Shown: positions 26,452 to 34,484 of the stretch, piece after piece
Position numbering within the stretch: the stretch's first letter is position 1
Layout of the letters: each line of letters starts with the position of its first letter
Sequence record: NC_019720.1
DNA length: 44,120 nt
Strand: one strand, 5' to 3'
From: Enterobacteria phage mEp213
Translations under genes and position numbers: made by a program
The notes under the pieces: model-generated
Seen by the model: the letters and a program-made list of their open reading frames with translations, nothing else
What the model was told of the DNA's origin: nothing
The model's database searches: none

Positions 26452-27092
26452 TGGGCTGCCTCCTTGCGAATCTGCTCCCTGAACAAGCGGGCTGAGACGA
26501 TGATGTCTCTGATGCGTACTGATTTTTCGTCGAACTGCTCACCACCGTTTTTAATATGCGCATCCAGTTCTGCACTGTGATGCCGAATGAAAGCGTTGAG
26601 GTCATGCGCCCGCGCTTCAGCCAGGAAAGCGTCGGTGGCTGGGGTTTTGTTATCTGACTCCAGCCACTGGTTGTAGTAATAATAGAACATGCCAGTAGGA
26701 TAACCACATCCGCTGTGCACGTGGTCTTTCATAGCAGAACCACACATGCAGTAGTCATTGTCAGTATTACTAATGATGTCGATAAGTTGCTGTGTCCGTT
26801 GCTTCAACATCGCATTCTCCGCCGCCAGCGCCGAAAACTTCTCGTGTGCCAACTTAACAGCTGCATCAGCCTGCTTAATTGACTCAGTCGCTTTCTGGTG
26901 GTCTTCGGCCAGCCCTGCTAAATCAGCCTCCAGTTCGGCTAGGCGTTCATTTAATGCATCTCGTTCATCCAGTAGAGCCAGCACAACCTGAGGTGTGACT
27001 TTCATACGAAATGCCAGCAATTTTTGAGGTGTTGCTACTGTTTCAATTGCTACTGCTGCCTCACGCAGTACCTGATAGTCAATCTTGCTCAC
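26448..27092 (-). CDS. Ea22-like early protein, paralogue A (GTG start)
   Basis: AAGGAGG 6 nt upstream of GTG 27092, which overlaps upstream stop (GTGA); Cys/His cluster [15 protein letters not shown]. Confidence 0.5.
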
Positions 27093-27256
27093 TGGTTGCC
27101 TCCTTTGCGCCACATCGCATTCAGATATTTGTTGTCATTAACAGAACCGAAACTATTTCTCTTAAGCAATTCCTCTCTCGATGGCATTGGCTTTACGCGT
27201 TGGCGAATAATCATTTCTGCCGGAAGAATGCCGGGATTGTATGCAAGTCCTCTCAT
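27089..27256 (-). CDS. Hypothetical small protein (55 aa)
   Basis: GAGGAA RBS 6 nt upstream of ATG 27256; trimmed from the listed 115-aa ORF. Confidence 0.35.
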
Positions 27257-27266
27257 GGTAAATTCC

Positions 27267-27560
27267 TCAGTCATTACTGATAGCGCCATAGCGTGAGCGG
27301 TAATTACGCAGGCGCGGGTCAATTTCAGGGAAGTGGGTATATGTGGCTTTGCGGAATGGTCGGATTGATGTCTGGTAAATTCGCTCGCGTTCTTCTTTCT
27401 CTGCAAGCCATATACAATGGCGAAATTCCTTTTCATCTTTCGTTTCCTGCGGTAGAGACATTATCTGGTCGTAGTTTTTCCTGAATTTATCCAGCACCTC
27501 CGATACGGATTTGCCGGAACAGCGGCGCGGGTCATCCGCACCATACAGAGGCGCTGGCAT
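27267..27560 (-). CDS. Hypothetical protein (97 aa); position and length fit P22 Abc2 but unverified
   Basis: ORF immediately downstream of the erf-ssb pair in the leftward operon. Confidence 0.4.
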
Positions 27561-27583
27561 AATGGAATCCTTATTTTGCTACT

Positions 27584-27967
27584 TTAGAAGGGAATTGAAT
27601 CGTCGTATTCAGGATGATTTTGATGATTGCTACTTTGCTGCTGTTGGCTGTTTCCTGAAGTTGCAAATCCAATCTTTGCATTCAGTAATTCAAGAGTGAT
27701 TGATTGACCATTTTGCCCCTGATAAACATCAACCCTGATGTTTTCTCCGGTAATTTCCACAATGCCACCTTCAACAAGAACACTACGGTAGTAATCCGCT
27801 TGCGCTCCTGGCTTGGCAAATACAACGGCGCTGTAGTTTGTCCATTCTTTCTTTTTTGTCTGGCGATCGTAATACTGAACGCCAGCACGGATGTTGAATC
27901 CGATATTTTCCCCGGCCTGAAACTCTCTTGCGGGTTTGTTTAGTCTTACAGTAATCGAATGTGCCAT
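27584..27967 (-). CDS. ssb: Single-stranded DNA-binding protein-like
   Basis: 127 aa; OB-fold-like body and C-terminal acidic tail ending DDSIPF; start overlaps erf stop (TAATG). Confidence 0.55.
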   Translation of the reverse strand: MAHSITVRLNKPAREFQAGENIGFNIRAGVQYYDRQTKKKEWTNYSAVVFAKPGAQADYYRSVLVEGGIVEITGENIRVDVYQGQNGQSITLELLNAKIGFATSGNSQQQQSSNHQNHPEYDDSIPF

Positions 27968-28572
27968 TAAGCAGCCGCTCCTTCTAATTCGTCTCGTCTG
28001 ATGTTGTAAACGTCCTGCGCTTTGTGCTGCTCCGGTGTTCCTTCGAGCATCTTCCACGCTTTGGCGAACGCCTGTTTAAGCTCTTCCACGGTGTTTTTCT
28101 GCATTGCTGCGTCAGTGAATGCTTTTAGAACCTGTTCAGGTGTAGGTGATGGTTTTGATTGCTTTGCTACTGCGTTCTGCTGATGTTTATGCTCGTCTGT
28201 ATCTGCATCTTTCGCATCATCAATGCCGAACAAACCATTGAGGCAATACTTGCGTGCATAAGAGCTTGTAGCTCCCGTAACTTGTGCAGAATCCATCCCT
28301 TTCTTGCTTTCTTCCTCTCGTGCAAGAGCGGTTGCCGTATGACTGTTTTCGCCATCGGTAATAGTTGCCGTGGCTTTCACGTAATACCGATCACCAATCA
28401 ACACAACTTCATCGCTGATTGATAAAAACAGGCCATTCAGTAACGGCTTAACGCCTTCAAGAATGTCTTCGCAGCTTCTGTATTTATATTTTCCGAATGA
28501 GTTGTACTGATTCTTTGGCGCGTTCAGATTTTCCTGAATAGCTGCCAGTCTTGCGTAAAATTCTTTGCTCAT
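27967..28572 (-). CDS. erf: Erf single-strand annealing recombinase (P22 Erf-like)
   Basis: MSKEFYARLAAIQENLNAPKNQYNSFGKYKYRSCEDILEGVKPLL... closely matches remembered P22 Erf. Confidence 0.85.
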   Translation of the reverse strand: MSKEFYARLAAIQENLNAPKNQYNSFGKYKYRSCEDILEGVKPLLNGLFLSISDEVVLIGDRYYVKATATITDGENSHTATALAREEESKKGMDSAQVTGATSSYARKYCLNGLFGIDDAKDADTDEHKHQQNAVAKQSKPSPTPEQVLKAFTDAAMQKNTVEELKQAFAKAWKMLEGTPEQHKAQDVYNIRRDELEGAAA

Positions 28573-28661
28573 ATGATTGTTCTCAGAATGGACATGGCCC
28601 AAGGAAATAACGCTGATTTAATACTTCAGTCTTTGCCGCATTTAAAAATACGCGAACACCT

Positions 28662-28832
28662 TCACGATCTCCCTTCTGGCGATACATTAACGCCTGCTGC
28701 GTGTACATGCGTCTCTGTAACTTGCTCTCCTTCACTGTGGTTGCAAGTGACATGAATATCTCCTTCGTTACCGATTAATTCTTTCATCTGACGAATGAAT
28801 TCTTCGTCTGACCAGTTATCTGTAAAACTCAT
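28662..28832 (-). CDS. Hypothetical small acidic protein (56 aa)
   Basis: ATG overlaps the Kil-like stop (ATGA coupling). Confidence 0.35.
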   Translation of the reverse strand: MSFTDNWSDEEFIRQMKELIGNEGDIHVTCNHSEGEQVTETHVHAAGVNVSPEGRS

Positions 28833-28981
28833 TTCCTGCGATACCACTGAAGGTTGATAGCTGATTTCATCGCTTTATTTGCTTCAAGCCACATTTTTGA
28901 ATCACCAATAAATCTGGCTATTACTGCTTTGTTCTGTGCAGCACGAAGCATCTGGTGATTGATGGCTATTTCATTGCGCAT
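28829..28981 (-). CDS. kil: Kil-like host-killing/cell-division inhibitor (50 aa)
   Basis: IARFIGDSKMWLEA resembles lambda Kil (ATFIGDEKMFREA); directly downstream of cIII-like gene. Confidence 0.5.
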   Translation of the reverse strand: MRNEIAINHQMLRAAQNKAVIARFIGDSKMWLEANKAMKSAINLQWYRRK

Positions 28982-29097
28982 AATAAGACCTCAACTCTTT
29001 TCCATCCGTCACGTAATTTACGGGTGATTCGTTCAAGTAAAGATTCATTTAATTGGAAGGCACCCATGCGAGCGCCTCCCGCGATTGCGTAAATCAT
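28966..29097 (-). CDS. cIII: cIII-like protease inhibitor (43 aa)
   Basis: MIYAIAGG....ESLLERITRKLRDGWKR matches the lambda cIII core from memory; below the ORF-track size cutoff. Confidence 0.65.
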   Translation of the reverse strand: MIYAIAGGARMGAFQLNESLLERITRKLRDGWKRVEVLLCAMK

Positions 29098-29121
29098 GGG
29101 TGGTTCCTTATGTTGGTTTTA

Positions 29122-30090
29122 TTAGTAGGTTATTTTTGTTGCGAATACTTCGCCTTTTACGATGGCTGTTATGATATTTTTAGCAACATCTTCTGATGCA
29201 CCAACCTTGATAAGGTCAGCAAGTATTTTGTTATTTACTTCTTTCCGGTGAGCTTTATCCTTTGCTCTACGCTCTTCTTCTTCCTTGATTCTTTTTTCTT
29301 CTGCTATTCTGGCTTGCTCTTTTGCTTCAGCATCGCGCCGGATTCGTTCAGCCTCCTCCTGTGCTTTTCGGCGTTCTGCTTCAATTGCCGCCTGCTTTTC
29401 TCTTTCAGCTCGTTCTGCTGCCTCTTTTGCTTCGCGCTGTGCTCGTTGCTCGGCCTCAATGCGTTCACGCTCTGCACGTTCCGCTGCGGCCTTAGCTTCT
29501 GCTTCTCTCCTTGCTGCTGCTTCAATTTCGGCTTTTGCCTTTGCTTCGGCTTCTGCTCTGGCTTTCTCTTCAGCTTCTCTTTTTAAGCGTTCTTCATGCT
29601 CTCGCTTTTCCTGCTCCGCTTTGAGTCTTGCCTCTTCTCTTTGGCGGTCAAATTCGCGATCCATCAAAATCGCTATTTCATGGTCAGACTCAATTTGCTT
29701 TGCGAGAGCTTCAGCTGCTGCCTTAGCTTCTTCTTCGGCTTTAATCCGTGCCTGTTCCTCCTCATAATCAGTAAGAGGCTGGCGCGCCTTGGCTTTCAGC
29801 TCATCAAGGCGATCACGCACTGTCTTGCGGTTGGCATCAATTAGCTTTGGAATTTCCTTCAGTTCAGCAACAAGGTCTTTGCCAAGACCATCGAGATATG
29901 TTTTCGTCTGCGCAACTTTATACGCCAGAGAAGCGATCTCCTTTCTGCCCTTTGCCGTTGTGATATCAGGCGCAAAGGACATAACTTCACGTTCAACCCT
30001 TTGAAGGATTTCTTCAATCTGGTCGGCAGACTGAAATACAGTCATTGCATTTGCTTTTTCAATAACAACTAAATCTGTTACTTCACTCAT
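29122..30090 (-). CDS. Charged coiled-coil/single-helix protein (E/R/K/A-rich), unknown function
   Basis: 323 aa from ATG 30090 (GGAGGA RBS); central 200 aa of EEARLKAEQEKREHEERLKREAEEKARAEAEAKAKAE-type repeats. Confidence 0.6.
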   Translation of the reverse strand: MSEVTDLVVIEKANAMTVFQSADQIEEILQRVEREVMSFAPDITTAKGRKEIASLAYKVAQTKTYLDGLGKDLVAELKEIPKLIDANRKTVRDRLDELKAKARQPLTDYEEEQARIKAEEEAKAAAEALAKQIESDHEIAILMDREFDRQREEARLKAEQEKREHEERLKREAEEKARAEAEAKAKAEIEAAARREAEAKAAAERAERERIEAEQRAQREAKEAAERAEREKQAAIEAERRKAQEEAERIRRDAEAKEQARIAEEKRIKEEEERRAKDKAHRKEVNNKILADLIKVGASEDVAKNIITAIVKGEVFATKITY

Positions 30091-30123
30091 ATATCCTCCG
30101 TCAAAAAAAATCGCCCCCACACT

Positions 30124-30191
30124 GGAGGGCAAAGAAGATTTCCAATAATCAGAACAAGTCGGCTCTTGTTTAGTTACGAGCGACATTGCTC
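30124..30191. repeat. 68-bp direct repeat, copy 1, followed by 9-bp-stem hairpin (30193-30220)
   Basis: 67/68 identical to 31521-31588. Confidence 0.9.
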
Positions 30192-30264
30192 CGTGTATTC
30201 ACTCGTTGGAATGAATACACAGTGCAGTGTTTATTCTGTTGTTAGTGCCAAAAATAAAGGCCGA

Positions 30265-30588
30265 CTATGCGGCCTTATCTACATTCCTGAACCAAACGCA
30301 GATCGGACCGTCTTCTGTATCGTGAATCGAACCGACAAACCATCCTTCTCCATCTGGCATGCTTGGCTCCCATCCACTGATGTTTGGATTCCCATCTTCA
30401 AAATACGCGTCAATTACCGTTTGATTGTTGTCGTTTTCCATTTCAACAATTGATGATTCAATGCCATGCTGCTTGCAGAAATATCTGAACTCATCAGCTG
30501 AAATTGCCTCTCTATCCCCAAACAGGTTGGCGTATTCTGGGTGCGTCCAGTAGCCATCCTCGCTTCGCTCTACTACTAATGCTTCCAT
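30265..30588 (-). CDS. Hypothetical strongly acidic protein (107 aa)
   Basis: About 23 Asp/Glu versus 6 Lys/Arg; stop overlaps a GGCCG-N6-CGGCC hairpin. Confidence 0.45.
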   Translation of the reverse strand: MEALVVERSEDGYWTHPEYANLFGDREAISADEFRYFCKQHGIESSIVEMENDNNQTVIDAYFEDGNPNISGWEPSMPDGEGWFVGSIHDTEDGPICVWFRNVDKAA

Positions 30589-30650
30589 ATATCACCTCAA
30601 ATAAGTGGTTTGCTGCCAAAACAATGAACCATCCGGAAATTCCAGATAGT

Positions 30651-30878
30651 TCATAATTCACTCTTCAATACTTCCAGCTTACTAATCGCCGAAAGATATC
30701 CGCGCTGATAGGGCATCATCATTCCTTCGAGCTTGCCACTTCTTAACTCCTCCCTGAGCAATTGTATTGCTTGATCAATAACCTCTGCCTTAGCGTCCTT
30801 TATGGCTTGCTTGCGGGGCTTTGCTTTCTGCTTTGGCAGATTTCTCAAGCATGATGGAATGTATGTCTGATTCATCAC
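30651..30878 (-). CDS. Hypothetical protein (75 aa)
   Basis: ORF contiguous with the upstream gene. Confidence 0.4.
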   Translation of the reverse strand: MMNQTYIPSCLRNLPKQKAKPRKQAIKDAKAEVIDQAIQLLREELRSGKLEGMMMPYQRGYLSAISKLEVLKSEL

Positions 30879-31151
30879 TTACCTCGCCGTCAGTTGTTTT
30901 GATTTCCGGTATCCTGCCGCGTAAATGGCTACGTTTGGCAGGCAAATACTTCCACTGCATTCTTCTGCCTTCTTGCAGCGAAGGCTTCCGAGTGATGCTG
31001 CTTTGTCTGCTCTGACGCAACCAGAGAGCTTTAGCGCAATTTTTCGCGCCAGTCGCTGTTCTTGCATTGCCTGCTCACGTTGAGCCTGTCTGCGTGCTCT
31101 GCGGCGATTTCTGGCGTTATCGTCAGCCAGATATGTAATGACTACTGTCAT
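30879..31151 (-). CDS. Hypothetical protein with Arg-rich N-terminus and four Cys (90 aa)
   Basis: ARNRRRARRQAQREQ segment followed by a Cys cluster. Confidence 0.4.
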   Translation of the reverse strand: MTVVITYLADDNARNRRRARRQAQREQAMQEQRLARKIALKLSGCVRADKAASLGSLRCKKAEECSGSICLPNVAIYAAGYRKSKQLTAR

Positions 31152-31520
31152 GTTGACCTCCGATGATTGACTTTGGCGGTGACGCGCCGGGTGCTTATCT
31201 TCCGGTTGCCGTCGTGCAGCTGCACTTCACGTCACCCCAAAGCCAACTACTCTTTGACTCACACTCTCGCAGTGAGCGCGCTCATGCCCTTGAGTCTCTG
31301 TCGCTTATTAGCCGCTGATAACCGGTGCGCGTCTGGCATTCGCGCTGCCTTTCCGGAGCATGTTCCCTTATTTACCCTCACATCGGTCTGCTAAACCTGC
31401 TCGCCATTACGCGACTCGGGGCAGCATCATTACTGCTGCATTGCCTTTCGGCTGCGGTCTAACCGCGTTAGTGCACCATTACAGCACCTCATGTTTGGTT
31501 AAACTCAGTTCCCGCATTTC

Positions 31521-31588
31521 GGAGGGCAAAGAAGATTTCCAATAATCAGAACAAGTCGGCTCCTGTTTAGTTACGAGCGACATTGCTC
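31521..31588. repeat. 68-bp direct repeat, copy 2, followed by 8-bp-stem hairpin (31591-31614)
   Basis: 67/68 identical to 30124-30191; adjacent hairpin has a different stem but a loop again beginning CTCG. Confidence 0.9.
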
Positions 31589-31620
31589 ACATAGCAGACT
31601 CGCAAATCTGCTATAGGTGC

Positions 31621-31782
31621 TTATTCGCATCGCATGACAACATCAAATTTTTCGAGATTACTTTGTCGCAACAATCCCTCTTCTACGCGGTCAGCTTTTC
31701 TATAATTATCAAATTCGAAATGTTTAATTACTTCTTTCGTTTCTCGCTCTATAACTTCAACAATGTATTTCTTATTCATCAT
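31621..31782 (-). CDS. Hypothetical small protein (53 aa)
   Basis: ATG overlaps upstream stop (ATGA). Confidence 0.4.
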   Translation of the reverse strand: MMNKKYIVEVIERETKEVIKHFEFDNYRKADRVEEGLLRQSNLEKFDVVMRCE

Positions 31783-32063
31783 TCTTCCCCCAGGGCCTTG
31801 CTGATGGCTGCCTTGGCTCGTTTGTATTCGGTTAACTCTCTGCACCCTTCGTCATGCTCGTAAAGGAAGACAAGCTCTTGCAGTGCTTCAAGCAAATCAG
31901 GAGCTGCTGCTATCAGTAGCGCATCCTCCCTTTCATTTCTTGTTGCTGCTTCAATGTATGTGTCACCAATCGTCACACCATGGAACGTAGTCATCATCTC
32001 GTTGACGTTTCTAACCGTGTACTTCCATTTACCAGGCGTACCCTTAAACTCTTTCATATTCAC
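31779..32063 (-). CDS. Hypothetical protein (94 aa)
   Basis: ORF in pL operon. Confidence 0.45.
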   Translation of the reverse strand: MNMKEFKGTPGKWKYTVRNVNEMMTTFHGVTIGDTYIEAATRNEREDALLIAAAPDLLEALQELVFLYEHDEGCRELTEYKRAKAAISKALGEE

Positions 32064-32111
32064 CTCTGTTGTTTATGCCAAAAGAAGGCCGACTATGCGG
32101 CATAATTATTT

Positions 32112-32300
32112 TTAACTATCATCAATACATGGCACTTTATTCCAGTCGATATCGTTTTTATTGTCGTCCCACATGTCTTTGTTTTTGTATTTCTCGCTAC
32201 ATCCTAGGCAAATGTTGTATGGCCTACCGATAAGGTTTAACGAAATACGTTGCATTTCATTTGATTCAAACATGTATCCACAGAACTGACATTTATGCAT
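32112..32300 (-). CDS. Small zinc-ribbon-like protein (62 aa)
   Basis: CxxC...CxxC pattern (CQFCG ... CLGC); first gene after N. Confidence 0.45.
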   Translation of the reverse strand: MHKCQFCGYMFESNEMQRISLNLIGRPYNICLGCSEKYKNKDMWDDNKNDIDWNKVPCIDDS

Positions 32301-32303
32301 ATC

Positions 32304-32636
32304 TCACCCCTCATACAGTAGCTTACTGCCTAATTTCATTTTCTGGCGACCAACACAAGTCACACCCATTTCACTGCGTGGCTTGCTGTACCATGTGCGC
32401 TGATTCTTGCGCTCAATACGTTGCAGGTTGCTTTCAATCTGTTCGTGGTATTCAGCCAGTACCGTAAGGTCTATCGGATTCAGTGCGCTTTCTACTCGTG
32501 ATTTCGGTTTGCGATTCAGCGAGAGAATAGGGCGGTTAACAGGTTTTGCGCTTACCCCAACCAACAGGGGATTTGCTGCTTTCCATTGAGCCTGTTTCTC
32601 TGCGCGACGTTCGCGGCGGCGTGTTTGTGCATCCAT
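32304..32636 (-). CDS. N: Antitermination protein N (lambda-like)
   Basis: MDAQTRRRERRAEKQAQWKAANPLLVGVSAKPVNRPILSLNRKPKSRVESALNPIDLTVLAEYH matches lambda N from memory; divergent C-terminus. Confidence 0.9.
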   Translation of the reverse strand: MDAQTRRRERRAEKQAQWKAANPLLVGVSAKPVNRPILSLNRKPKSRVESALNPIDLTVLAEYHEQIESNLQRIERKNQRTWYSKPRSEMGVTCVGRQKMKLGSKLLYEG

Positions 32637-32904
32637 CTGGATTCTCCTGTCAGTTAGCTTTGGTGGTGTGGTGGCTGGTAGTCTAGCTCCAGCTTGTTGA
32701 GTCTCATTCGGAGGGGTATAACCGGCACCCCAGCGATTTTTCCATGCGACAACGTGCGCGTTATGGCGGCCTTATCGCCCGCGGCTCCCCATCTCGTCCA
32801 CGCTATTGCTAGCGTTGGGAGCGCTTCACCGCTCAACAGTAGGTAAGCACTTGCCAGTGACTAGCTGGCTTCACCACACCCCAAAGCCTTCTGCTTTGAA
32901 TGCT

Positions 32905-32935
32905 GCCCTTCTTCAGGGCTTAATTTTTAAGAGCG
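32905..32935 (-). promoter_or_regulatory. nutL (boxA CGCTCTTAA and boxB GCCCTGAAGAAGGGC on the - strand)
   Basis: Reverse complement of 32905-32935 gives boxA then boxB as in lambda nutL. Confidence 0.85.
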
Positions 32936-32974
32936 TCACCTTCATGGTGGTCAGTGCGTCCTGCTGATGGCTAG

Positions 32975-33036
32975 ATAATCACAAATTGTGTTCGTGCTGT
33001 CAACACGAAATGTGATTGTTTTTATCACAACACGTG
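32975..33036 (-). promoter_or_regulatory. pL with three CAC-N5-GTG operators (OL)
   Basis: - strand -35 TTGACA (32998-33003), 17-bp spacer, -10 GATTAT (32975-32980); operator dyads at 32980-32990, 33004-33014, 33026-33036. Confidence 0.6.
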
Positions 33037-33124
33037 TTTTCATTGATTTTTAAGGTAATTTAATTTTCTTTGGGCAACAAAAAACCCGCCGAAGCGGGTT
33101 TGATGTTTTTAAGTGGCGGGTATA

Positions 33125-33766
33125 TCAGGAGAATTTCATCATCATCTGCACTGCTACGCCGATTATCTTGCAGTTGCCGTCGATTGGGATCAACGGATAG
33201 GCAGGGTTAAGCCCTTTCAGGTATTTGTTACCGCCATCAATGATTAGCTTCTTGAACGTGGCTTCATTAGCATCTGTCAGCTTCGCAACTACCAGGCTTC
33301 CATTAACGGCTTCCTTTCCAGTGTCGAACAGAACCAGCATACCCTCAGGAACGCTAAGGCCGGTAGGAGCTGTCATTGAGTCGCCCTGAACCCTGAGCCA
33401 GAAGGCGTCACCGACAACGTGACAATCTGATTCATACCACTCATCCACTGCCTGAGGGTTGTACGGCTCTACGGCCTCACTCCATGCACCTGCGCTAACC
33501 CAGCTAATCAACGGAAACTTTTCCCCTGGCTTGTATTGTCCCTGATAGTTGTCGCCAAAAAGCAGTTCTGCCGGAGCGACGCCCAAAGCTTTAGCTATTA
33601 CCTCTGCGTCATCAACACTAACGCTTCTGGTTCCTGATTCATAGTTGCCGATCCGAGATTGTGAAGCCCAGCCGCAAAGCTCCGCCAGAGCCTTCTGTGA
33701 AAGCCCTTTATCTTCCCGTAATCGCTTGATACGCGCGGCGATAGTTTCTGTTCTGTTCATGCGCAT
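33125..33766 (-). CDS. cI: CI-type repressor (HTH plus S24 LexA-like autopeptidase domain)
   Basis: N-terminal HTH (LSQKALAELCG), GDSM active-site serine motif, conserved Lys downstream; divergent from cro; terminator hairpin downstream (33084-33105). Confidence 0.85.
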   Translation of the reverse strand: MRMNRTETIAARIKRLREDKGLSQKALAELCGWASQSRIGNYESGTRSVSVDDAEVIAKALGVAPAELLFGDNYQGQYKPGEKFPLISWVSAGAWSEAVEPYNPQAVDEWYESDCHVVGDAFWLRVQGDSMTAPTGLSVPEGMLVLFDTGKEAVNGSLVVAKLTDANEATFKKLIIDGGNKYLKGLNPAYPLIPIDGNCKIIGVAVQMMMKFS

Positions 33767-33773
33767 TTTATAT

Positions 33774-33837
33774 CACATTCCGTGGTTTAAGGCTTTACAC
33801 GATTTGTGTTGACTATCAATCACAATATGTGTTTAAT
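33774..33837. promoter_or_regulatory. OR region: three CAC-N5-GTG operators with pR (and presumably pRM)
   Basis: Dyads at 33774-33784, 33798-33808, 33821-33831 (spacing 24 and 23 bp); -35 TTGACT 33809-33814, -10-like TTTAAT 33832-33837. Confidence 0.6.
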
Positions 33838-33870
33838 AAAGACTGAGTGAACTAGCTCTTAAGGAAACCT

Positions 33871-34086
33871 ATGAACAACATTGCCAACGAACGGAAAAAG
33901 CTTGGCATCACTCAATCTGCGTTAGCAGGCGCGTGTGGCTGGAACCAGTCCCGCTTAGCTAACTACGAGTCAGGTATCCGGACTCCAGATTTAGAGTCGT
34001 GCCGTCGCCTGGTAAAGGCGCTGAATAAATTGGGGAGCAAGACAACGCTAGATGGCTTGTTCCCGCCGGAACACAAAGCCGCTTAA
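33871..34086 (+). CDS. cro: Cro-type HTH repressor
   Basis: 71 aa, XRE-type HTH (LGITQSALAGACGWNQSRLANYESG), divergent from cI; AAGGAA RBS. Confidence 0.8.
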   Translation: MNNIANERKKLGITQSALAGACGWNQSRLANYESGIRTPDLESCRRLVKALNKLGSKTTLDGLFPPEHKAA

Positions 34087-34094
34087 GACATTCC

Positions 34095-34126
34095 AGCTCT
34101 TACACATCCCAGCCCTGAAAAAGGGC
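34095..34126 (+). promoter_or_regulatory. nutR (boxA GCTCTTACA, boxB GCCCTGAAAAAGGGC)
   Basis: Matches lambda nutR from memory; followed by lambda-like tR1/cII leader. Confidence 0.85.
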
Positions 34127-34205
34127 ATCAAATTAAACCACACCTATGGTGTATGCATTTATTTGCATACCTTCAATCAATTGTTATCTAAGGAAATACT
34201 TACAT

Positions 34206-34484
34206 ATGGTTCGTGCAAACAAACGCAACGAGGCTCTACGAATCGAGAGTGCTTTGCTTAACAAAATCGCAATGCTTGGAACTGAGAAGACAGCGGAAGC
34301 TGTGGGAGTTGATAAGTCGCAGATCAGCAGGTGGAAGAGGGATTGGATTCCAAAGTTCTCAATGCTGCTTGCTGTTCTTGAATGGGGTGTTGAAGACGAG
34401 GAGTTGGCGGAACTGGCTAAGAAAGTAGCCAGAATGCTGACAAAAGAAAAAGCCCCGAAGAACGGCGAATTCTTCGAGGCCTGA
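34206..34484 (+). CDS. cII: Transcriptional activator CII (lambda-like)
   Basis: MVRANKRNEALRIESALLNKIAMLGTEKTAEAVGVDKSQISRWKRDWIPKFSMLLAVLEWG matches lambda CII from memory. Confidence 0.9.
   Translation: MVRANKRNEALRIESALLNKIAMLGTEKTAEAVGVDKSQISRWKRDWIPKFSMLLAVLEWGVEDEELAELAKKVARMLTKEKAPKNGEFFEA

Follow-up and report, generated by a model that had tools for sequence, protein, structure and literature searches.

The 68-bp repeat in the left operon of phage mEp213 matches the body of the PreS small RNA gene and includes a probable truncated duplicate

Genes and features at the locus

The window analyzed here is a 44,120-nucleotide (nt) stretch of Enterobacteria phage mEp213 (sequence record NC_019720.1); it is 100% identical to record PV340538.1 of Escherichia phage mEp213. 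In its left operon, a repeat search identified two 68-nt sequences, at positions 30124–30191 (copy 1) and 31521–31588 (copy 2), that are identical at 67 of 68 positions and are spaced 1397 bp apart. Allowing up to 3 mismatches, exactly these two copies were found in the window, with 0 expected in shuffled sequence. As described below, the repeat corresponds by sequence to the first 68 nt of the gene for PreS (formerly LPR1), a small RNA (sRNA) of phage lambda. Copy 1 is a complete gene by the same measure, and copy 2 is probably a truncated duplicate.

Transcription of the genes in this region is leftward from the promoter pL, making the minus strand the relevant one, and on that strand either copy reads GAGCAAUGUCGCUCG...UUUGCCCUCC. 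Upstream of copy 2 lie a lambda-type N gene (N1) with a lambda-type nutL and three small genes. Copy 2 ends in a junction, after which the transcript continues through the leader of a second N gene (N2), N2 itself, two small genes, a terminator-like hairpin, a further hairpin (allele A) and copy 1. Two N genes, of different types, thus follow one another in the mEp213 operon. Coordinates are given in Table 1.

An earlier note on this DNA, made from the sequence alone, had described the repeat pair, and the searches above confirm it. The same is true of the GCCCUC/GGGGGC hairpin with a U8 tract that follows copy 1, which was recovered by both terminator scan and folding. Other parts of that description need to be amended. 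A hairpin does fold beside each copy, but on the leftward transcript it precedes the 68-mer rather than following it. Three genes are indeed bracketed by the repeats, one of which is the second N antiterminator gene, and the block described as free of open reading frames (ORFs) is the leader of that gene.

Table 1. Positions of PreS-related and neighboring features in the window
Feature	Coordinates	Strand	Basis or remarks
PreS/LPR1-type sRNA gene, copy 1	30103..30191	-	68-mer, 3' half of terminator and U8 tail
PreS seed, copy 1 (UGUUCUGAUUAUUGGAAA)	30139..30156	-	the 18 nt of the lpr1 seed deletion
tL2a-type terminator, GCCCUCC AGUGU GGGGGC and U8	30103..30132	-	terminator scan; fold -12.0 kcal/mol
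Hairpin allele A	30183..30230	-	abuts and partly includes PreS 5' end; inverted repeat, fold
PreS copy 2, nt 1–68 only	31521..31588	-	68/68 identical to lambda; seed intact at 31536–31553; no terminator
Putative recombination junction, tL2a left arm GCCCUCC and boxB loop/right arm (GAAAUGCGGGAAC)	31507..31527	-	sequence comparison
Hairpin allele B, UAUAGCAGAUU UGCG AGUCUGCUAUG	31590..31615	-	fold; 11-bp stem
Terminator-like hairpin after orf107	30257..30276	-	repeats, terminator scan
orf107, function unknown	30265..30588	-	phrog_1372, E = 1.5e-43; hypothetical in PV340538.1
orf75, function unknown	30651..30878	-	phrog_5305, E = 4.8e-38
N2, second N antiterminator gene, HK620/Stx-phage type	30879..31151	-	Pfam PF25694 N_peptide, phrog_271
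N2 leader, starts mid-boxB	31152..31520	-	BLAST pieces; comparison with Stx2_5044
Small gene phrog_6949	31621..31782	-	usually precedes hairpin B in E. coli phages
N1, lambda-type N gene	32304..32636	-	Pfam N36, 91.8 bits
nutL upstream of N1	boxA 32927–32935, boxB 32905–32919		motif matches
pL	32975–33003		promoter scan

The repeat corresponds to the body of the PreS gene

Operon-derived and 3'UTR-derived Hfq sRNAs, such as CpxQ and SroC, are released from longer transcripts by endonucleolytic processing. LPR1, since renamed PreS, is an Hfq-enriched lambda sRNA whose gene lies between ea10 and ral; its full length is ~88 nt, a processed form of ~68 nt is the stronger of the two, its 3' end is the intrinsic, Hfq-binding terminator tL2a, and it is expressed only in the lytic cycle, when pL is active (bioRxiv 10.1101/2024.10.31.621285). 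Its seed, UGUUCUGAUUAUUGGAAA, pairs upstream of the host sliding-clamp gene dnaN and opens the ribosome-binding site, so that dnaN translation rises in favor of phage DNA replication; PreS also represses alaS (bioRxiv 10.1101/2024.10.31.621285). The sRNA is listed in a review as well (PMC12197685).

The supplementary primers of the preprint match the window, which settles the identity of the 68-mer with PreS at the level of sequence. Cloning primer P810 (preprint Table S5) begins with GAGCAATGTCGCTCGTAACT, the first 20 nt of the 68-mer, and the left edge of the full-deletion primers falls directly after ...GAGTGAATACACG, the end of hairpin A. Seed-deletion primers P970/P971 remove the 18 nt TGTTCTGATTATTGGAAA, which are found in both mEp213 copies, and the M1 mutation (CTG>GAC) falls inside this seed. 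Northern probe P843, AAAGAAGATTTCCAATAATCAGAACAAGTCGGCT, is the plus strand of the window at 30131–30164. Counted from the LPR1 5' end (GAGCAATGTCGC...), copy 2 matches at 68 of 68 positions and copy 1 at 67 of 68. The last ~20 nt of PreS comprise the loop, right arm and U tail of tL2a. We take the ~68-nt LPR1 band, LPR1-S, to be a 5'-trimmed form that keeps the terminator, and hence to be distinct from the 68-mer. The PreS 5' end used here is that given by primer P810 and the ~88-nt band rather than by mapped ends.

Position in the operon agrees with this assignment. In lambda, the hairpin, 68-mer and terminator occupy the 182-nt spacer between ral (34087–34287) and ea10 (33536–33904), and the same three elements occur in phage 21 and in HK620, where the terminator is annotated tL2A. 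PreS lies in the pL operon, downstream of N and accessory genes and upstream of the ea10/cIII/kil region. The order in mEp213 is cI, pL, N1 ... PreS, a TolA-like gene, kil and bet, and that in the related phage mEp043 is the same. Thus the element that the earlier note did not recognize from lambda or P22 is present in lambda, and a diverged version occurs in P22-like Salmonella phages; it went unrecognized because PreS was described only in late 2024. The suggestion in that note of a selected RNA element has been borne out, the element being an sRNA gene.

Searches against Rfam 15 gave no gathering-score match anywhere in the window, and no covariance model matched either PreS copy even at E ≤ 10 (29000–34000). 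A scan of 29900–33200 for sigma-70-like promoters found only pL and none near PreS, which fits production from pL. PreS thus resembles processed operon-derived and 3'UTR-derived sRNAs in having no promoter of its own, in lying within a polycistronic transcript and in ending at an intrinsic terminator, and a shorter processed form has been reported for LPR1. It differs from them in the stable hairpin with a variable stem directly 5' of the sRNA.

Copy 1 is a complete PreS gene by sequence

Over its ~88 nt, copy 1 differs from lambda PreS by two substitutions and two extra U residues: G26A, an A-to-G change in the terminator stem (U-A to U-G), and U8 instead of U6. The seed and the architecture of the terminator match, the 5' hairpin is the same as that of lambda, and the gene lies in the pL operon after the N-proximal accessory genes. 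Its 3' end, an 8-bp GC-rich stem followed by U8, is a tL2a-type terminator and would also provide the Hfq-binding module. At the sequence level copy 1 has every feature expected of PreS, and we infer that it works as lambda PreS does. The gene downstream differs, being TolA-like in mEp213 and ea10 in lambda. A further difference, not described in the preprint, is the additional copy of nt 1–68 in mEp213, which lacks a terminator and is fused to another leader.

G26A, at position 30166 (CAGGAG>CAAGAG), is the sole difference between the two copies. It was seen only in mEp213 among ~125 sampled instances of lambda-type PreS (PreS1), and it falls in a predicted loop upstream of the seed. This private change sits in the complete gene, and the truncated copy has the lambda sequence.

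It should also be noted that a 354-amino-acid ORF (29122–30186) begins within PreS and, reading across the terminator without a change of frame, joins the TolA-like gene, which is annotated as starting at 30090. The open frame hinges on the length of the U8 tract in the terminator, and the extension is very likely not real.

Copy 2 ends at a junction between PreS and boxB

After the 68-mer, copy 2 continues GAAATGCGGGAACTGAGTTTAACC... in place of AGTGTGAGGGC and a T-run, and its final bases, CCCTCC, have become part of the boxB hairpin belonging to an HK620/Stx-type nutL. The same continuation is found in the Stx2c phage Stx2_5044 after pL, boxA (GGCTCTTTAAC) and GTCCCGCC, with which it forms the boxB hairpin. 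The intact nutL of Stx2_5044, composed of boxA, boxB (GTCCCGCCGAAATGCGGGAAC) and the same leader, serves an HK620-type N. In mEp213 the junction reads TTTGCCCTCC joined to GAAATGCGGGAAC, with ...UUUGCCCUCC running directly into GAAAUGCGGGAAC..., and the left arm of tL2a stands where boxA, the spacer and the left arm of boxB were. The 13 nt after copy 2 (GAAATGCGGGAAC) and the leader that follows correspond to the loop, right arm and downstream part of the HK620/Stx2-phage nutL. Compared to that site, the mEp213 junction lacks boxA and the spacer, its left arm has been replaced, and a G-C pair has become a U-C mismatch. The two parental arms, GCCCTCC (tL2a) and TCCCGCC (boxB), have the final CC in common and agree at 5 of 7 positions overall. 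Judged from these arms, the PreS-boxB junction is a typical microhomology junction.

The hybrid hairpin created by the fusion has a predicted energy of -4.0 kcal/mol, no better than shuffled sequences, compared to -10.5 for intact boxB and about -12 to -13 for tL2a. There is no U tract after copy 2 and the terminator scan finds no terminator there, the right arm and U tract having been replaced by boxB sequence. The junction does not constitute a nut site either, since there is no boxA in front of it and boxB is mutated in its left arm. Having lost the terminator hairpin and the U tail, copy 2 would be transcribed through and become the 5' portion of the N2 mRNA, and we infer that it yields no Hfq-type sRNA.

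We also considered pairing in cis of the seed of copy 2 with the N2 ribosome-binding site or leader, for which a 10-bp match with one mismatch can be seen by eye. Duplex energies of the PreS seed with the N2 translation-initiation region and with the N2 leader were no better than those of shuffled sequences (fractions 0.41 and 0.45), and this candidate was rejected.

The duplication is consistent with a single illegitimate crossover

Phage mEp043, from the same collection as mEp213, carries cI, a lambda-type N, small genes, hairpin B, PreS, tL2a, the TolA-like gene, kil ... bet. It matches the window without a break from 26624 to 30191 (99.4%), a segment comprising the TolA-like gene, tL2a and the 68-mer, and matches it again at 31522–31811 (96.9%) and in the N1 region (97.9%). 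Nothing in mEp043 matches between 30191 and 31522, and it has no N2 cassette. It thus represents the same backbone without the 1397-bp insert. The N2 cassette is ~98% identical to sequences in ECP1, JEP4, HK620 and Stx2_5044.

We propose that mEp213 began as a phage with an mEp043-like left operon, consisting of a lambda-type N, three small genes, hairpin B, PreS, tL2a and the TolA-like gene. One illegitimate crossover would then have joined the stem of its tL2a to the boxB of a second phage that carried N2 directly behind pL. Both parental genomes would have shared PreS, tL2a and the TolA-like gene downstream. The product would be a 1397-bp tandem module containing half of boxB, the N2 leader, N2, orf75, orf107 and hairpin A, flanked by copies of PreS nt 1–68. 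A single crossover of this kind reproduces mEp213 exactly, including the 68-bp direct repeat, and so explains the structure. The two copies would accordingly not be symmetrical cassette boundaries, as the earlier note had suggested: copy 1 appears to be the whole gene, and copy 2 a truncated duplicate from one event.

The arrangement appears to be private to mEp213. The usual state is a single copy with its terminator, as in 120 IMG/VR contigs and in HK620. With a 221-nt query across the junction, coverage of 80% or more was reached by mEp213 alone among 50,697 phage records and by none of 5,426 complete E. coli genomes, 2,228 of which carry the PreS element. The exact junction 23-mer is absent from IMG/VR and JGI metagenome contigs. 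A recombinase site had been offered as a candidate function for the repeat. We found no evidence for an att-like or attC-like site, there being no recombinase among the flanking genes and no recurrence of the junction in any other genome searched.

Taken together, we assign a probability of about 0.85 to the reading that the repeat is the body of PreS, that copy 1 is complete, and that copy 2 is the terminator-less by-product of one illegitimate crossover. Several points weigh against it. The crossover history is a reconstruction from present-day relatives, and the duplication rests on one mEp213 record in the collections searched. The function, Hfq binding and dnaN regulation ascribed to mEp213 PreS are carried over from lambda by sequence identity, and copy 1 carries both G26A and a U-G pair in place of a U-A pair in the terminator. 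Finally, a 3' end of copy 2 could still arise by processing, and its inertness is thus a deduction.

A hairpin with a replaceable stem abuts the 5' end of PreS

Each copy is preceded by a hairpin of a different sequence. Allele A, in front of copy 1, has a 14-bp stem that extends to ~20/22 pairs (-24.5 kcal/mol, z = -6.8). For allele B, in front of copy 2, a 53-nt fold gave -15.0 kcal/mol (z = -1.75), and the hairpin alone gave -13.2 kcal/mol, which 2 of 1000 shuffled sequences equaled. In the 120 IMG/VR contigs with the PreS core, the element is present once, with the terminator after the 68-mer and only hairpin A (~113) or hairpin B (8) before it; the 68-mer is nearly invariant, 96 of 125 instances being identical. 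Allele A is the commonest in the sampled contigs. Scans for other bases at -1/-2 yielded three more contigs only, all with point variants of A. A search with hairpin B returned 98 instances in sampled contigs, in front of both PreS types, ~30 of which precede the diverged sRNA described below (PreS2). A search with the PreS2 seed revealed two further hairpins, C (AATGACCA...) and D (AATGCGGA...), in addition to A and B. Either sRNA type can be preceded by A or by B, and allele A is found with lambda-type, 21-type and HK620-type N. The alleles have thus been shuffled among phages independently of the sRNA body.

With the pairing register chosen per sequence to maximize pairing, and pairs counted in Python, 94% of stem cells are standard pairs across ~55–60 unique sequences, compared to 27–52% when the 3' arm is slid by 1–3 nt. 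Eight consecutive stem pairs vary, with 2–4 pair types each, although these represent four haplotypes rather than many independent substitutions and the counts are biased by the search patterns. Three apex-proximal pairs (A-U, U-G and U-A) are invariant, and the base (GCAC/GAGC), which includes the first PreS nucleotides, is nearly so. RNAalifold missed the 5' hairpin on a MAFFT alignment because MAFFT had placed a gap inside the 5' arm of allele B. These data uphold the proposal in the earlier note that the stem covaries beside a conserved 68-mer, and extend it to four stem alleles across the wider PreS-type family. What that note took for a conserved loop, CTCG, belongs mostly to the upper stem, which is conserved (AUU...AGU); the loops proper are not the same (CAAC versus UGCG).

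The pattern of pairing indicates that the hairpin is a selected structure with a replaceable stem, always abutting the PreS 5' end. We suggest that it has a role in processing or stability: it could mark, bound or shape the endonucleolytic cut that frees the PreS 5' end from the pL transcript, and protect the 3' end of the upstream mRNA. A more specific idea, which we hold only tentatively and consider rather doubtful, is that the hairpin and the first ~20 nt of PreS, which are trimmed in the short form, are a dedicated maturation module that sets the cut site in the antiterminated pL transcript. If so, the module would also process copy 2 of mEp213, leaving a PreS seed at the 5' end of the orphan-N2 mRNA. 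The text and supplements of the preprint make no mention of a hairpin, stem-loop, RNase E or RNase III (bioRxiv 10.1101/2024.10.31.621285), and our literature search gave nothing usable on mapped RNase III or other processing sites in this part of the pL operon.

A scan of GTDB species representatives added no hairpin alleles, yielding mostly lambda contamination and four chance hits. Low-coverage contigs identical to lambda at this locus were present in assemblies of Pseudoxanthomonas, Shewanella, Pseudomonas, Bacillaceae, Bradyrhizobium and others, for example a 48,542-nt contig of Shewanella canadensis with a coverage of ~1. Such contigs in unrelated assemblies are almost certainly lambda DNA contamination or spike-in.

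A diverged PreS-like sRNA in Salmonella phages

A diverged PreS-like sRNA, which we call PreS2, occupies the same position in P22-like Salmonella phages. It was found in 61 phage records, 54 of them from Salmonella phages, with examples in Salmonella phage epsilon34 (EU570103.1, 29128–29230) and at IMG/VR loci. PreS2 shares with PreS its first ~24 nt, the position of the flanking hairpin, a related seed and a place upstream of a cIII-type leader. It differs in the seed itself (CUCGUUCUGGUUAAUCGAAAAAUC), in its terminator (GCCGCUC...GGGCGGC and a U-run) and in being ~15 nt longer. It falls outside the set of homologues in the preprint, which was defined by at least 92% identity (bioRxiv 10.1101/2024.10.31.621285).

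Alternative explanations

The most serious alternative is that the PreS patch is mainly a boundary or linker for homologous module exchange, the two copies being the exchange boundaries of the N2 cassette. The concept of boundary sequences in lambdoid phages reportedly comes from the HK620 genome paper. The PreS patch resembles these sequences in being short, near-identical across hundreds of phages and flanked by unrelated genes on either side; it is present in 118–125 of ~127 sampled loci, and its flanks drop to a few loci within 50–100 bp. The presence of both alleles, A and B, with either sRNA type implies crossovers at the border between hairpin and sRNA, and in the record of CUS-3 a "boundary sequence" is annotated within this operon. 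However, that element of CUS-3, bsq5, is the cI-N spacer and thus a different one, and the product of the PreS patch is known. The patch is taken up by the seed and terminator of an experimentally characterized sRNA, which is sufficient to explain the conservation. Furthermore, the copy 2 junction lies inside 2–7 nt of microhomology and not at a homology border, indicating that the cassette was not exchanged at two linkers. Use as a recombination substrate would then follow from the conservation. The module-exchange idea of the earlier note therefore survives in that a conserved patch lies at mosaic module boundaries, but not in the form of two symmetrical cassette ends, and we consider the linker explanation unlikely overall.

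Somewhat less probable still is that both copies are working sRNA genes, with copy 2 cut at hairpin B and at a downstream site to give a doubled dose or a variant 3' end. Copy 2 is indeed identical to lambda PreS over all 68 nt, including the seed, and retains a 5' hairpin like those of genuine PreS loci. On the other hand, it has neither an intrinsic terminator nor a U tract, and its hybrid hairpin is no stabler than shuffled sequences. A terminator hairpin with its U tail is the main Hfq-binding module of Hfq-dependent sRNAs, and the preprint points to this feature in LPR1 (bioRxiv 10.1101/2024.10.31.621285).

We see little room for the hairpin and the conserved CGCUCGUAA as a nut-like or rrn-like (boxB-boxA) antitermination signal in front of the tL2 terminators. 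The motif CGCTCGTAA does agree with the boxA of the window's nutL, CGCTCTTAA, at 8 of 9 positions, the stem is variable as it is in boxB, and conservation between the two sRNA types is highest over the first 20 nt of PreS. However, the 5 occurrences of the loosened motif in the window, against 2.4 expected, are not a significant excess, and the order of hairpin then boxA is the reverse of that in phage nut sites. Moreover, the occurrence of allele A with lambda-, 21- and HK620-type N means that the hairpin does not track N specificity.

That the 68-mer encodes a small protein from the ATG at nt 6–8 (MSLVTKQEPTCSDYWKSSLPS...) is highly improbable. The frame is open through the 68-mer and in the window runs on into the TolA-like gene, and 6 of 8 variable sites in PreS1 fall on third codon positions (p ~0.02 before correcting for three frames); the same sites, however, are also in regions of the sRNA predicted to be unpaired. 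In PreS2 the ATG is replaced by ATA or ATT, the C-terminus shifts according to how long the terminator T-run is, and the start codon lies within the hairpin stem, with GGAG only 2 nt away. Equally slight is the chance that the duplication is an assembly artifact or a chimera of two phages, as might be suspected from a single mEp213 record with an arrangement seen nowhere else in the collections searched: a chimera formed at the shared 68-mer would have retained the terminator and read X-PreS-Y, whereas the real breakpoint lies outside the shared sequence, inside boxB, with only 2–7 nt of similarity, assemblers tend to collapse 68-bp repeats rather than create them, and the two copies can be told apart by one base and by their unique flanks.

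The second N gene and its surroundings

N2 encodes a 90-amino-acid protein that matches PF25694 with 58.9 bits (cut-off 27.9) and phrog_271 with E = 3e-34, and its region is 98.4% identical at the nucleotide level to the N region of HK620. In 10 of 10 other genomes that encode the identical N2 protein, the gene lies directly after the repressor, as the first gene. The only boxB sites in the window, at 32905–32919 and 34112–34126, are lambda-type, leaving N2 without an intact cognate nut site here.

The N2 leader contains a ~245-nt block (~31257–31500) that is absent from HK620, ECP1, JEP4 and CUS-3 and is 88.8% identical in Stx2c-converting phages. The block has no ORF on the transcript strand and no Rfam hit, and the leader as a whole folds somewhat better than shuffled sequences (z = -2.8). 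In addition, a second repeated boundary patch was noticed at 30235–30278, similar to 32065–32106, consisting of a terminator-like hairpin (AAGGCCGCATAGTCGGCCTT) followed by TTTTGGCA..AACAGA. One occurrence lies before hairpin A and the other between orf62 and orf94; the same patch follows ral in lambda.

Significance

The element itself, PreS with tL2a, is already known and does not represent a new class; what mEp213 adds is a phage-specific duplication scar. The novelty is modest and consists of the truncated copy fused to an orphan-N2 leader, the 5' hairpin with its four alleles, and the Salmonella-phage variant with another seed. Copy 2 of mEp213 would offer a natural, ready-made way to test what PreS requires for its release and for Hfq loading, and the four-allele hairpin bears on how the sRNA is cut from the antiterminated operon transcript. 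PreS acts on dnaN, and PreS2 could show whether this targeting is conserved. For the lambdoid phages more broadly, mEp213 would be a base-resolution example of mosaicism arising through a microhomology crossover between two sequences that encode RNA hairpins.

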